From assembly GCA_964016885.1 (NCBI GenBank), contig OZ024744.1, positions 29,946,001 through 30,010,000 on the forward strand: a stretch of 64,000 nt of DNA, given 5' to 3'. The number at the start of each line of letters is the position of its first letter. Within the stretch, counting starts at the first letter, position 1. Source of the stretch: Eledone cirrhosa. Taxonomy: Eukaryota. The notes beneath the pieces were generated by a model, which saw only the letters and a program-made list of their open reading frames with translations, searched no databases and had not been told where the DNA came from. The position numbers were made by a program, and so were the translations under genes. Below, one piece after another: positions 2,137-19,283 of the stretch.

Positions 2137-3704
2137 CTAACAGTGCTGCGATCGAATGTGGCTTTTTAGCCCAGCCAATGATCTAAAATGTCTTGCACAG
2201 AGTCGGCAACCAAAACATTCACTGGGAATAGTCGGCTGTGGTTGGAGTTCGTGTACTTTTGCATGTCGTTTGAGCCCTCCTGCTGATTTACATTCTCTAC
2301 CACATGTTTGGCAAGCATGATGAGTAGCATCTCCAACAGCAGCCTGGTAGTCAACCACTGGTCTTACTTTATGACTGCGAAGATGACTTTCGAGTCCAGC
2401 TTTGCTTAGGCAGAGTCTCGCACATACGCTGCATGTCAGCACCATAGGAGGACCCTCGCCGTCTGGAAGTGCAACAGCAATGCCCTTCCTCACATCCCGC
2501 TTTACTTTCTCGTGTGCGATTCGAGATGCCTCAAAGGCAACTTTTCCCTCATATACAGTCTTTCTCCATTTATTACGATCAGCAGCAATATTTTCCCATG
2601 TATCAGCAGAGATGTTAGCGTCTTTCAGAGAGGCTTTCAAGGAATCCTTATACCTCTTTTTTGGTTTATGTGGCGGTCGTTTTCCTTTAACCAACTCTCC
2701 ATAGAAGAGTTGTTTTGGTATTCTAGAATCCTTCATCCTGGCAAGGTGACCACTCCAACGGATTCGTTGCTTAAGCACAAGAGCTTCTATACTGTCACAC
2801 ATAGAGCTTTCCAAAATCTCGACATCACTGATGTGGTCCCTCCAGTGAACGCCGTGGATCCATCTGAGACACATCTGATGGAAACGCTCCAATTGCTTAA
2901 GGTGGTGTCGATATGTGACCCAGGTCTCGCAGGCATAAAGAAGACAAGAGAGTACACATGCCCTGTACACCTTTACCTTTGTCCTCCTGCATATGTCTCG
3001 CCGACCCCAGAGTCGCCTTTCTAGCTTTCCGAAAGCATCACTTGCTTTCCTAATCCTAAGTGAGATTTCACTGTCAAGGTTGCTGTATCGATTGACAGGG
3101 CTTCCCAGGTAGACAAACTGATCAATCACTCCAAGTCGTTTGCCATACACATAGATGTTTGGTTCAGTCTACTGCTTACCAGGGGCAGGTTGGTACATGA
3201 CGACGGTTTTCTTGAGACTGACAGTCAATCCTAGGGCAGTGCAAGCGTCAGAATATGCATTCAAAATGTGCTGCATATCACTCTCTGTGTGCGCTACAAG
3301 ATCGGCTCCGACATGTTACCTCCGACATTAACCCAAGCCTTCATGTCGTCATGGAAAGACCTAACTAAAGAAAGGAACTTATCAGGGCAACCAAGTTTCT
3401 GGAGAACATTCCATAATGCATCTCTGTTGACAGTATCGAAAGCCTTTGTCAGATCGACAAAAACCTGATACAGATCCAAGCCTTGTTTAATGCACTTCTC
3501 CTGGAGCTGTCTGGCTGAGAAGATCATATCAGTAGTGCCGCGTCCAGCACGAAAACCAGATTGACTTTCAGGAAGAACACAATCTGCAATGTGTGTCAGC
3601 AGACGGTCCAGAAGCACCCTACATAAAACTTTCCCTACGACAGAAAGCAATGATATACCTCTGTAGTTCCCACAATCATTCCTCTTACCCTTTCCCTTGT
3701 ACAA
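2137..3704 (-). mobile_element. RTE-clade LINE, 5'-truncated and internally deleted (partial RT, three C-terminal C2H2 fingers)
   Basis: YKGKG..DCGNYRGISLLS, PESQSGFRAGRGTTDMIF, FVDLTKAFDTVNR, FVYLGS, YACETW, RWSGHLARM..RIPKQLFYGEL. The QG and YADD segment is missing at ~3305, and there is a stop near 3170. Confidence 0.93.
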
Positions 3705-3821
3705 TATATAACAGTTTTACAAATAAGCTTTGACGTACCCTATCCGGATGACTTCCAAAAACAATGGTTGCATTTTAATAGGGTACGTCAAAGCTTATTT
3801 GTAAAACTGTTATATATTGTA
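3700..3821. repeat. Perfect 44-bp inverted repeat with 34-bp spacer
   Basis: 3700-3743 is the exact reverse complement of 3778-3821. Confidence 0.95.
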
Positions 3822-8236: not shown

Positions 8237-8850
8237 TTGTACACAATGTTCCTTGTTATTCCGTGTCGGGCATATGCAAAGAGATTTGTCTTGCTTCCCA
8301 CTCTTGAGCAACCAACTTATAGTTGCCCGTGTGAAAAACATGACTCTTCCAAAAGAAGACCAGCAACAGCTAGGGTCTGACCCTGGGATTTCTTGATAGA
8401 CATTGCAAAGCTGACACGGTCCGGTGAATGGTTCGTTGGTTGTCTGTTTCAAGCGCTCTTTGTGGCAGTACGTTCAGCATCTTGCGATCGTCGAATAGCA
8501 GATTCCACTGACGATTCGTTTGCCCGCCTTGTTCTTTTTCTTGCCGCTTTCGCAGTATTTCGGCCAATGGAGTATCCCTTCTTTCGAGGTATGACCTAAA
8601 AGCAGGACGAAGTACATTAAGACTAACTGGTAGAGTAAGGAGTAAACTCGTAAGTGATGCATGTGATTTCCGAACCGCTGACTATGTAATTGCTGGCCTT
8701 GTGCCAAAAGTAGTGGGACTTTTTGGGTGGCATATCGGCAGTAACAGTGACGATAAACCGTCTGTGCTTTCGTGAAATAAATACGTTTATTTATATTTTG
8801 TTTTTGTGTGTGCAAATATATCTGTACACGAATATATAATTATATATATA
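8236..8850 (-). mobile_element. Internally deleted Helitron (RepHel N-terminus joined to PIF1 helicase C-terminus)
   Basis: 8592-8435 reads (I)PRKKGYSIGRNTAKAARKRTRRANESSVESAIRRSQDAE..RALETDNQR. 8420-8238 reads RVSFAMSIKKSQGQTLAVAGLLLEESCFSHGQL*VGCSRVGSKTNL..TRNIVY (PIF1 motifs V/VI). Confidence 0.85.
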
Positions 8851-9324
8851 CTAGCAGAAGTACCCGGCTTTGCCCGGGTGTAAGTCGACCTTTGGTCTGT
8901 TAGAATGTGTGAAAGTTACTTCCCGCGCATCACAGGTTCAAAACTTCGAACTTCAATGAAAAAAAATAGGTTAGTAGACACAGGTGTGTAATTTATTAAT
9001 TGTAGTTACACAGTGTATCGTTGAAATTGTTCTCTGCACGACTGACGGAAGTCAACATCGCTTGATGTTGAATGTTCAGTTAATTTAAAGCAGGGTGAAA
9101 ATGTCGATTACTTTCAGGGTTTTGTTTTTTTTACAATTTTTTCCGCTCACATGTGCAGAAGAAGAATTAAAAGGGCCTTTATCTTAACCGCGGCATAATG
9201 GCGAGTCTTTTGTGACAGTTTTCAAGAATATAGGACGTTCCTGTAAAAAGTTTTCCCATGTGTAACTTTGCCTTGTTTTTTTGCGCAAAGTCGAGCCCCG
9301 CTTTAGTTTTATTGATTTTTGACA

Positions 9325-9910
9325 TCAATGCGTGATCTCTGAAGTAGATTTGCTAAAATCTGTCCCGGTAAATTTGCTATAGGTGAAAAAAAGTTGATCA
9401 AAATTGTATCTAGGGTTATTGCCCTTTGCCACAGCCTCAAGCCTCGTCTGACGGGATGTTGGTGATTCCTCCGTCAGCGCTTGTTGGCGACGAAGGCGAA
9501 CATCAGCAAGCCTTGTCGTACGTGATGTTGGTGACTCAACCAGCCGGGAAAGACGTCTATCAGCGAGTCGAGATTCGCGCTCAGCAGGTGTTTCCTAGAG
9601 AAAATTAATTAATTCTACTGGTTAGCTAAGCCAATGGCAGTGTCAATAGTAAATGAGAAAAGTCTAACATGAACAAAAGGGAATCAAGGTAAGACAATAA
9701 ATTTAATATAACTACGATTAGAATGTTGTAGTTGCTTAAAAGTAGTGACAGTTAGGATAAACGCAGTACTTGCTAACATTAAGGGAGAATATTCCATAAA
9801 GGATTAATCAATTGTGAATGAACTCATACCTGAGAACGCCCAATTCGTTGTCTCAAAGCAGTAGCTGTACCTTTTTTGGAGGTAAGTCTTGAACGTTTCC
9901 GTGTGGGCAT
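9325..9910 (-). CDS. Predicted two-coding-exon ORF (9910-9830 + 9594-9325), 116 aa, basic N-terminus plus STPR-like (E-S/T-P..R..RL) repeats of Helitron origin
   Basis: MPTRKRSRLTSKKGTATALRQRIGRSQ, then a phase-0 CAG|GTATGA...TTTTCTCTAG|G intron, then ETPAERESRLADRRLSRLV ESPTSRTTRLADVRLRRQQALTE ESPTSRQTRLEAVAKG...TH*. Confidence 0.65.
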
Positions 9911-10092
9911 AACGACGTGTAACGAAGCTGTTAGGTTAGAGAGAAGTGATTAAATACAGAGAGAGATGACACCAGATTCGTTAGCATGGTTACTGGTGAA
10001 GGTTTGGAAATATGATTACAACAACTTACCGAATTTTCCGGTCTATAAATTGCACTTAAAATAATTAAATTTAATAAAAAAACAGCTCTGCG

Positions 10093-10099
10093 TTTTATA
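10093..10099 (-). promoter_or_regulatory. TATA box of the Helitron mini-gene
   Basis: TATAAAA on the minus strand, ~65 nt upstream of a perfect GTAAGT donor (10029). The matching acceptor CTCTAACCTAACAG (9928) lies 17 nt before the ATG. Confidence 0.55.
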
Positions 10100-11559
10100 C
10101 TCCGGCGAGCCTTATGTATAAATAATACAATGGTAATCAATCACGGCTCTAACAGAAGTAATAGATCTAGACTAAAAGTAAAGAAGATAGCATTTTCCTG
10201 GTTGGCCTTACACGCCGTTGCGCGGACCTGATTTTAAATGATACGCCTTATATCCTGGTGAGCCTTATAGAGCGGAAAATATCTATTGGAAAAGAATACG
10301 AATTCATGACCAAGGTGTGATAAAATAGGCGTCTATACAGCGCCTGAAACAAACTTGTCCAAAACCCTAGGATTTTTCTCGTTAAGTATCCACCCAAAAG
10401 GAACCGTTTTTTAGTTACAAAAAATAACCAAAGTGTATAGTAGCTATATTTCTGACATATCATGCCAAAAAGAACAATATATTCAAAAAATGTTCTAAAG
10501 TACATTCAATCTCTCTTTTTGACCGATATCTTAATAAGCAAGTTATCGATTTTTTATTGGCTGTCAGTATCTATCTGCATGCAGGTGTGCACGTGTGCGC
10601 AATTAATTGCAAATACGCTCATAACATTTAGTCGTAAGCAGAACAAAAAATGCCATTAGAGGTGGGCTAATAATGAAGACACAAAAGCTGGTGAACTTAC
10701 GTTTAAGCACCCGAAAAGTTACTCACTTCCTGTGCAAACGACTGTAACAGTAGTAATATAAATAAATTAATTTTTTAGAACTTTGTATGTGTACAATACA
10801 ACTTGGTCAACGTATTATTTAGTAATTCTTTTTTTTCAAAAAGCATGATTATTTAAGACTGTTTGAAAATTTACTCACATCTTTTAGCATCACAAAAGAC
10901 ACCATTAAATTTGGTTCCCTTTTCAGATAGGGATAATACTGTACTTCAACTTGAATAAGGTGGAATATGAAAAGATAAACTCTTTAATGGTCGGTCGTTT
11001 ACTGAAACAGCTGGGAAGACATGCATCTGGCCGTCCAATCAATAACGCACGTCCTTATATGGGCATATGAAATTTATTTTTATTGCGCCAGATGTAAACT
11101 AAGAGTTCTTGTGTTCGAATTCACATAAAATTTCATTGGAATCGAAAAACATTCTGTCATAGGGCCCGATTATCGATTTTTCGAAAGTTTCAAGTAGCCT
11201 ATTCCACTCTACGCGTTGAGTTTTATATATGTGTGAGGTTTCATGAAAATTGGATGAACGGTGTAGCATGCAAGTTGGGAACACCAAACAATGTCCATCT
11301 TCCCTTTATATATATAGATATACATTAAAATAACAGATTAAAGTTTAAGCAATGAATCGCTGCTTTCACTCTTAACGGAATCTTCTGAAACTAAAAAAAT
11401 CAATCTGTAAACGCAGAAGTAAATATTTCGAAAACCGTTGTGGCCGAAGGAAAACAGGAAGACGATACTTTGGTTCATGAAGACGTTCCCTGGCAATGAA
11501 CGGAAAATAGCGAAGATAATACGTCTGAAATGAGAACAATATTAGTCACAATGTCGTAA

Positions 11560-13909: not shown

Positions 13910-14865
13910 TTTAGTTATAGAAATCAGCTAGTTACCTCCCCTTACGCATAACTCCTCTTAATCACACACACACTTCCGGAAAATAATACGATGTCAATTC
14001 TCGCAACAAAAACAACCTGCTCTATAGAATTGAATTAGAGATCAACAAGCTGTGGTGTTCTAACATGGTTCATCAAGCATCCAATGTTGAATCATCGTGG
14101 ATTGTGTGAGGGACATATAGTCTATAAATTGCGTTTTCTGGATTGTGAAAATGGTGGTGTATGCGTGGACCGTGGCGTTGTTTTGCTTCTCATTTTTAAT
14201 ATTTTTGATATTTCTCTACACACAGGCTTCTATATCATACATATATAAAAAATACTTTACCAATACAACCCCCATAATACTCTTGATTGCCCGCTTAAAC
14301 TGCTTGTATTACATAAAACACCCTGCCACACTTTAATCTTATATAAATAAGACACACGTGCATGCCCCACGTGTAACTATTGCATACACTAACTACTTCA
14401 AACTATCCTCTTGCTTTATCTTCGTAAACTGCCAATATTGTATTTTAACTTTAATTTTGTCCTTTAATATGACTTTAATCTTTGTATGTAAATTGCCATG
14501 CTATATTATTATAATGGATGTCAACACACTGTGCATCGATATATACATATGTTTCTATATGTCTCTTGTGTTGGAAAGGAGGTCAAGTATGTAAAAAATC
14601 ATTGAAAAATTGCTCCGAAGACTCCAAACCTCGGTTTGGAAGAAACAATTGTAAGCGAATAAATGGTTTAAACAGAACTTTGATTCATGTAATTTCTATA
14701 TAACTGCTCTGTAAAACAACTGATGTTGTTACATTGAGCTATTTATTTTACTGGTAATAAGGTAGTAATAAATTACTGTCTTTCACTGTTTAGGGTTTAA
14801 AATAAAATATATATAACTATAAAAGGTTTTAGTATATACATAACCATAAATAGTATCCTTAATAC

Positions 14866-18329: not shown

Positions 18330-19283
18330 TTTAGTTATAGAAATCAGCTAGTTACCCCCCCTTACGCATAACTCCCCTTGATCACACACACACTTCCGGA
18401 AAATAATACGATGTCAATTTTCGCAACAAAAACAACCTGCTCTATAGAATTGAATTAGAGATCAACAAGCTGTGGTGTTCTAACAAGGTTCATCAAGCAT
18501 CCAATGTTGAATCATCGTGGATTGTGTGAGGGACATATAGTCTATAAATTGCGTTTTCTGGATTGTGAAAATGGTGGTGTATGCGTGGACCGTGGCGTTG
18601 TTTTGCTTCTCATTTTTAATATTTTTGATATTTCTCTACACACAGGCTTCTATATCATACATATATAAAAAATACTTTACCAATACAACCCCCATAATAC
18701 TCTTGATTGCCCGCTTAAACTGCTTGTATTACATAAAACACCCTGCCACACTTTAATCTTATATAAATAAGACACACGTGCATGCCCCACGTGTAACTAT
18801 TGCATACACTAACTACTTCAAACTATCCTCTTGCTTTATCTTCGTAAACTGCCAATATTGTATTTTAACTTTAATTTTGTCCTTTAATATGACTTTAATC
18901 TTTGTATGTAAATTGCCATGCTATATTATTATAATGGATGTCAATACACTGTGCATCGATATATACATATGTTTCTATATGTCTCTTGTGTTGGAAAGGA
19001 GGTCAAGTATGTAAAAAATCATTGAAAAATTGCTCCGAAGACTCCAAACCTCGGTTTGGAAGAAACAATTGTAAGCGAATAAATGGTTTAAACAGAACTT
19101 TGATTCATGTAATTTCTATATAACTGCTCTGTAGAACAACTGATGTTGTTACATTGAGCTATTTATCTTACTGGTAATAAGGTAGTAATAAATTACTGTC
19201 TTTCACTGTTTAGGGTTTAAAATATATATAACTATAAAAGGTTTTAGTATATACATAAACATAAATAGTATCCTTAATACTAT
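18330..19283 (+). mobile_element. Family B copy 2 (hammerhead variant at 19030-19078)
   Basis: Near-identical to 13910-14868; flanked by (TA)n on both sides. Confidence 0.9.

Follow-up and report, generated by a model that had tools for sequence, protein, structure and literature searches.

Helitron1 (HLE1) elements are defined by their ends, i.e. a 5′ TC start, a 3′ hairpin, a terminal CTAG and an A/T insertion site (PMC11417382). The element described in this study shares these four features with the HLE1 derivatives HelibatN1-N3 and Heli1Xen2, and it resembles them further in having the termini of an autonomous element, a copy number far exceeding that of the parent and a size near 2 kb (PMC11417382, PMC4778049, PMC12001565). 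Its interior sets it apart: that of HelibatN3 is reported in these sources as captured host DNA, whereas that of our element is the transposon's own predicted promoter region, two predicted introns and first 79 codons, with the cut mapped to a microhomology. The KP element of Drosophila is also an internally deleted transposon, whose leftover frame is the N-terminal part of the transposase (PMC7776569), and the family described here likewise combines an internal deletion with an open N-terminal frame. Repressor activity has been shown for KP (PMC7776569), whereas that of the stub reported here would be hypothetical; its putative binding module is shortened and it resides in a rolling-circle element. 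A third point of reference is the RepHel protein of Helraiser (PDB 7LCC): its alignment with the long relative L151 spans 490 residues (E 9e-55) and takes in both the basic helical N-terminus and the zinc-finger-like region; the stub ends before that region, and is without nuclease and helicase.

The frame of the stub contains repeats of the STPR type. In the silkworm protein FMBP-1 one 23-residue helix covers 4 bp and three repeats are enough for binding; the repeats bind AT-rich DNA in the major groove, and are characterized by Glu1, Thr2, Arg6, Arg9 and Leu10, with Tyr16 and Arg20 contacting phosphates (PMC4856987). STPRs have already been reported as stable parts of HLE1 elements (PMC11417382).

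The window, i.e. the whole stretch of DNA that was analysed, comprises 64,000 nucleotides of the 3.0-Gb genome of Eledone cirrhosa; its first 24 kb consist of retrotransposon debris and simple repeats, and the remainder of one satellite array. On its minus strand resides a non-autonomous Helitron of 2,468 bp (11318-8851), whose termini were read directly. It starts with TC (11318-11317), as do its siblings unless the start is hidden in an AT run, and ends with a hairpin followed by CTAG, which conforms to the CTRR end of HLE1 elements. It lies between A (11319) and T (8850); CTAG followed by T ends all 30 fetched loci, 26 of which align over the whole length of the element. Contigs skipping about the whole element were also found, a weak signal of 20-30 letters per side. 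The termini are common to a RepHel-coding element and a RepHel core of its own is absent, as in other non-autonomous HLE1 elements. A preliminary description had listed the motifs of a spliced gene within this element, and all of them are present among the following features:

8851-11318, minus strand: whole Helitron1 (HLE1) element
9438-11318, minus strand: 5′ segment, the parent's first ~1.9 kb (element positions ~6-1893), 92-95% identical to long copies
10093-10099, minus strand: TATA-like box of the predicted RepHel promoter, TATAAAA here and TATAAAG in most copies
10030-10092, minus strand: region of the predicted start site and non-coding exon 1, placed by the TATA-like box and the donor at 10029
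9928-10029, minus strand: predicted intron 1, 102 nt, GTAAGT...CAG, with CTAAC at 9939 and 9934
9830-9927, minus strand: exon 2, with ATG at 9910 and 27 codons (81 nt) of basic RepHel leader
9595-9829, minus strand: predicted intron 2, 235 nt, GT...AG, phase 0, required in the parent to bring the ATG into frame with RepHel
9438-9594, minus strand: RepHel-derived part of exon 3, with repeats 1 and 2 and the first 10 aa of repeat 3
9594-9538, minus strand: repeat 1, 19 aa
9537-9469, minus strand: repeat 2, 23 aa
9468-9439, minus strand: repeat 3, first 10 aa
9438-9440, minus strand: deletion junction with TTG microhomology, ~5.68 kb of the parent removed, 172 exact junction matches
9325-9437, minus strand: read-through tail from parental 3′ non-coding DNA, ending at TGA (9327-9325)
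9308-9313, minus strand: AATAAA, parental, predicted
8851-9440, minus strand: 3′ segment, the parent's last ~600 bp, 92-95% identical to long copies
8851-8879, minus strand: 3′ hairpin (8879-8862, 6-bp stem by folding) and terminal CTAG (8854-8851)

The parent of this element is an ~8.2-kb RepHel Helitron, which was found in the genome. A Pfam search for the Rep domain yielded 3,704 candidates, 150 of them scored; among 50 Rep loci compared, L129 alone matched element positions 9-1893 (94%) and continued into RepHel. With its next 900 bases as a query, 12 full-length matches were obtained among 40 scored of 347 candidates, and ten of these 12 long copies contain both the 5′ 1.9 kb and the 3′ 0.6 kb of the window element. 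In eight of the nine long copies examined TTG is present at both segment edges; the stretch missing from the window element measures 5,630-5,693 bases in six of the nine, the remaining three having deletions of their own. One long copy (L149) scores 198 bits for Helitron_like_N and 194 bits for PIF1, far over the cut-off. All 12 carry frameshifts or stops, and no intact RepHel parent was found among them (40 of 347 candidates scored; more may exist). The stub is nearly unchanged from the parent: over 863 nt spanning the promoter region, introns and exons, three columns distinguish the majority of 10 long copies from that of 72 short ones, and the single nearly fixed difference is an amino-acid change (A68T).

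In the window element a 5.7-kb deletion has brought the first 1.9 kb of the parent up against its last 0.6 kb. Since the element consists of the two ends of the parent, the TATA-like box, both predicted introns and codons 1-79 represent the beginning of the RepHel gene. What follows codon 79, the AATAAA among it, is 3′ non-coding DNA of the parent; the sequence following 9438 lies ~1.4 kb beyond the RepHel stop. The element is an ordinary deletion derivative of a Helitron, and the earlier view of it as a non-autonomous Helitron that kept a promoter-like region, a basic leader and STPR-like RepHel repeats is borne out, now with parent and breakpoint in hand. It provides a well-mapped case of a deletion creating a non-autonomous Helitron.

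It had been considered that the last ~33 codons and the AATAAA might be unconserved read-through. This holds for the codons, the last 37 of which are parental 3′ read-through; the tail with its stop also occurs in L221, L225 and L226, siblings without the gene in the DNA that was covered. The AATAAA, on the other hand, is conserved in 30 of 30 copies, because it is parental. In all four long copies examined it is the first sense AATAAA past the RepHel stop, and it may be the parent's own poly(A) signal, judging by this position. A second AATAAA is located at 8997-8992 (minus strand).

A DNA search yielded 659 candidates, of which 40 were scored; identity over the gene was 97% or higher in every one of the 40. 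With a 30-base pattern spanning the internal junction, 172 exact matches were obtained (0 with a control pattern), which puts the copy number of the family at 172 or more. A near-identical 30-mer, shifted by two bases, matched exactly in 34 of 56 copies that had been chosen by other DNA, so that a family of roughly 200-300 copies is suggested. The family is young, its copies differing from the column majority by a median of 0.88%. Its typical frame comprises 107 codons (22 of 30 copies in one set, 43 of 72 in another). The spliced frame of the window copy does give the 116-aa peptide proposed earlier, but this length is private to it: the family stop, a TAG following codon 107, has been lost through small changes near 9359-9353, and the last 10 codons exist in this copy alone. 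TATAAAA is another window-copy variant (96 of 107 copies have TATAAAG), and so are R24G in the basic leader and a 6-nt loss from intron 1, which measures 108 nt in the family. The window copy shows 15 substitutions in 1,150 nt relative to the majority.

Three repeats of the form E-S/T-P-x-x-R-x-x-R-L, as noted in the preliminary description, do start at residues 28, 47 and 70, but the third is cut after 10 of its 23 residues. The stub thus holds 19 + 23 + 10 residues instead of the three or four tandem 23-residue repeats of an STPR domain; the parent completes the third repeat and begins a fourth. Each of the three repeats starts with Glu1, Thr/Ser2, Arg6, Arg9 and Leu10 in place (Ser replacing Thr2 in two), as in FMBP-1, with which the stub also shares one 23-residue repeat and a basic stretch ahead of the repeats. 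FMBP-1 differs in having four tandem repeats, whereas the full repeat of the stub is without the phosphate-contacting Tyr16 and Arg20 (repeat 2 has Arg16 and Ala20); moreover, exon 3 of the stub scores 15.4 bits, under the Pfam STPRs (PF21107) cut-off of 27, and resides in a transposon. The STPR resemblance is real all the same, since relatives with more repeats pass the cut-off (37 bits in L155, 52 in L151 and 167 in L121; the parental copy L149 scores 19.4). A search for homologs of the 89-aa exon 3 at near length, based on short-word seeds and thus silent on uniqueness, gave 19 candidates, none of them significant.

Changes acquired by a transposon after insertion are near neutral. Merging identical sequences reduced 150 loci to 107 distinct copies, 72 of which, chosen by 5′ DNA, 3′ DNA or the 30-base junction, were analysed; 13 loci covering the stretch in part (some internally broken) and copies found solely through the gene were left out. 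The 79 RepHel codons carry 59 amino-acid-changing and 28 silent private changes and 4 stops, i.e. a dN/dS of 0.87-1.0 over three transition weights, with 3.1-3.6 stops expected. The corresponding numbers for the 28 tail codons are 37, 10 and 2. Private substitutions amount to 0.50-0.54% per site alike in upstream DNA, introns and exons. The spliced frame is open in 53 of the 72 copies (43 of them with 107 codons) and broken in 19. Disruption of the frame among siblings, which the preliminary description had named as a test of its proposal, was thus found, and at the neutral rate. A subset of 26 junction-picked copies gave a dN/dS of about 2 (p 0.02-0.07), an excess of amino-acid changes that we take as noise or CpG decay and not as positive selection. 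The 12 long copies show a dN/dS of 1.0 as well, so the test, which excludes selection on each copy, is silent on a weak collective effect, and a single selected copy would also escape it.

The parent, the breakpoint and the source of each piece are directly established, as are copy number and neutral decay; we regard the gene-like structure as probably a passive 5′ stub of the RepHel transposase gene within a 2.5-kb deletion derivative, likely without a selected protein function. A repair or template-switch event at the TTG microhomology would have removed 5.7 kb from one ~8.2-kb element. Both termini were kept, and the RepHel of an intact copy elsewhere likely mobilised the derivative in trans; such cross-mobilisation has been shown for Helraiser (PMC4778049). 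The cut would by chance have fallen in frame with 28 stop-free codons of 3′ non-coding DNA, upstream of the parental AATAAA, which accounts for the complete-gene look of the stub. Transcription from the inherited promoter, followed by splicing, may persist in some copies, and their product would be a passenger. Certain observations count against passivity: the TATA-like box, introns, stop and parental AATAAA form a plausible transcription unit, promoter region and repeats are retained by both deletion families whose junction was counted (172 and 20 exact matches), and the open frames predominate in a family that is young. Such stubs resemble complete spliced genes, and could enter gene sets in hundreds of copies.

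Among the alternatives, we have considered a regulator similar to KP, an unlikely option. The 107-aa basic repeat protein, made from many copies, would bind the AT-rich ends or the promoter and dampen RepHel in trans. There are precedents for its parts: small non-autonomous P elements encode repressors, e.g. the 207-aa KP protein (PMC7776569), Helraiser without its first 489 aa fails to bind ssDNA (PMC4778049), and AT-rich DNA is the target of STPR repeats (PMC4856987). The proportion of open frames (53/72) fits such a role, as does the excess of the stub family (at least 172 copies) over the 12 long elements found, every one of which is broken. The copies nevertheless decay neutrally, and the putative binding module is reduced, with one full 23-aa repeat left where the smallest binding STPR unit shown in the FMBP-1 work has three (PMC4856987), a Pfam score under the cut-off and the zinc-finger-like region beyond the repeats deleted. 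It is likewise doubtful that the ~200-300 young copies are a full Helitron counterpart of KP, which would express a spliced STPR-type RepHel fragment from the parental promoter and poly(A) signal, bind AT-rich ends and have helped to silence the parent. If the stub were expressed and repressive, it would represent a self-limiting mechanism for rolling-circle transposons; a literature search, judged by titles and abstract openings, found no case of an expressed repressive Helitron stub. The earlier proposal of a trans-regulator or a nascent domesticated protein is unsupported, given the neutral decay of the frame and the origin of the tail in parental read-through.

Rather improbable is selection in cis, whereby the 5′ 1.9 kb would have been kept since the promoter and its transcription aid copying of the element, the protein being irrelevant. 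The promoter-intron region has survived in full in two separate deletion families. The second comprises at least 20 copies (20 exact junction matches; L152-L160 and L251-L270) of ~3.3-3.5 kb, in which all repeats and the zinc-finger-like region are kept and joined to the last ~100 bp, with a short read-through end. The shared 3′ end of the element gave 252 exact matches, and the first 30 of these included 9 members of the window family, 3 of the second stub family and 3 other deletions without the repeat exon, followed by 5 with unrelated or unmatched DNA upstream and 10 with a long stretch of the parent's 3′ region. The 9 window-family ends contrast with the single example of each gene-less deletion type (L221, L222 and L228); L224 is a further gene-less derivative. 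The existence of these gene-less derivatives weakens the argument, however; as at least 3 of 30 sampled elements are without the repeat exon, the stub is unnecessary for movement. In addition, differences in copy number between derivatives can be due to chance, and the promoter region decays like the remainder. L224 and L225 were considered as a second identical deletion and rejected: the match to the parent starts at the junction point, but unrelated repeats lie upstream.

As a candidate DNA-binding stub the second family would be preferable to the window family, judging by the regions it keeps. An AATAAA before its end is absent in eight of nine copies, the one match being a private variant. 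After removal of 4 partial loci and 1 duplicate, 24 copies showed 101 amino-acid-changing and 35 silent private changes and 6 stops (dN/dS 1.0). Fixed differences from the long copies number 8 amino-acid-changing and 5 silent (ratio 0.56, p 0.34).

Domestication of the window copy, or of another single copy, as a host DNA-binding gene is very improbable. Host STPR proteins do exist, FMBP-1 showing a weak match (E 0.002) to the repeat-rich relative L151, and the frame of the window copy is open. This copy is nevertheless an ordinary member of its family, with its 15 substitutions, R24G and altered C-terminus, and lies amid retrotransposon debris and simple repeats. A domesticated gene would be expected as a single locus without mobile ends and under purifying selection on the frame; we found at least 172 dispersed copies with intact ends and a dN/dS of 0.87-1.0 over 72 copies, a value that a single selected copy would escape.

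Scarcely credible, finally, is the idea of an exon-intron model read into the sequence by chance, with the parental RepHel starting elsewhere: the score of exon 2 alone against three intronless leaders was reached by 416, 438 and 88 of 2,000 shuffles, a weak result, and an intron at the same place was shown in no relative, but in the parental copy L149 exon 3 runs in frame into RepHel with an in-frame TAG just before it and the first Met only at residue 117, the leader-then-repeat layout recurs in other RepHels, and both the parent and the diverged second stub family retain consensus-like splice signals.

The exon-intron model is more than chance. Unspliced, the reading from the ATG at 9910 ends after 28 aa; spliced, it can be aligned to the intronless RepHel P0004 from the first residue on (E 1e-7). 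Contigs from four sequencing runs of one study, of unspecified kind, contained no joint at either predicted intron, a result that speaks neither for nor against splicing. The leader of exon 2 contains 9 K/R and zero D/E, like the MP-basic leaders of intronless RepHels. Among the metagenome relatives (52 loci fetched), the N-terminus could be read in 32; such a leader is present in 14 of them, the repeats following in most of the 14, and the same layout is seen in P0002-P0004. The model for intron 1 rests on its motifs and on its removal of an upstream ATG at 9987; donor and acceptor are both retained in 9 of 10 long copies. In the cluster of P0001 (8 members), P0001 itself and five others start with a few residues followed by Q-E-T, a hint of an acceptor at the position of exon 3. 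These data predict two introns at the start of an animal RepHel gene.

Repeat number is variable among the relatives of the element. In L151 the 69-bp repeat unit has expanded to about seven or more copies. L121 (3658-8811, plus strand), which belongs to another family, has an unbroken 1,718-codon RepHel frame in which 11 STPR stretches (167 bits) are in frame with Rep and PIF1; STPR-type repeats are thereby shown in frame with both Rep and helicase, and this locus is a candidate intact autonomous Helitron. P0002 and P0004 likewise join STPR with Rep. This suggests the N-termini of Helitrons as a possible source of host STPR proteins such as FMBP-1; a literature search found no paper titled on such an origin.

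Several further observations concern the genomic arrangement of these elements. The flanks of L007 resemble those of the window element on both sides (8770-8850 and 11319-11370), so that either both copies entered a host repeat at the same AT run, or one arose by duplication together with its flanks. L010 and L026 contain head-to-tail tandem copies of the element with a short AT run between them, while L244/L245 and L246/L247 show paired 3′ termini ~3.1 kb apart on opposite strands, in a matching structure. In L061-L088 (contigs C16, C19, C20 and C27) near-identical Rep domains of another Helitron family recur every ~100-130 kb, which suggests a very large tandem unit or a segmental repeat. 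Within the window, 2137-3716 (minus strand) contains a broken reverse transcriptase, which we take to be LINE-type, followed by zinc-finger-like motifs; a close relative of this sequence is inserted beside the element in L159. The stretches 14121-14594 and 18541-19014, ~4.4 kb apart, have identical translations. The satellite array (24564-64000), GTT-rich and with a 45-bp period, measures at least 39 kb and continues past the window end.
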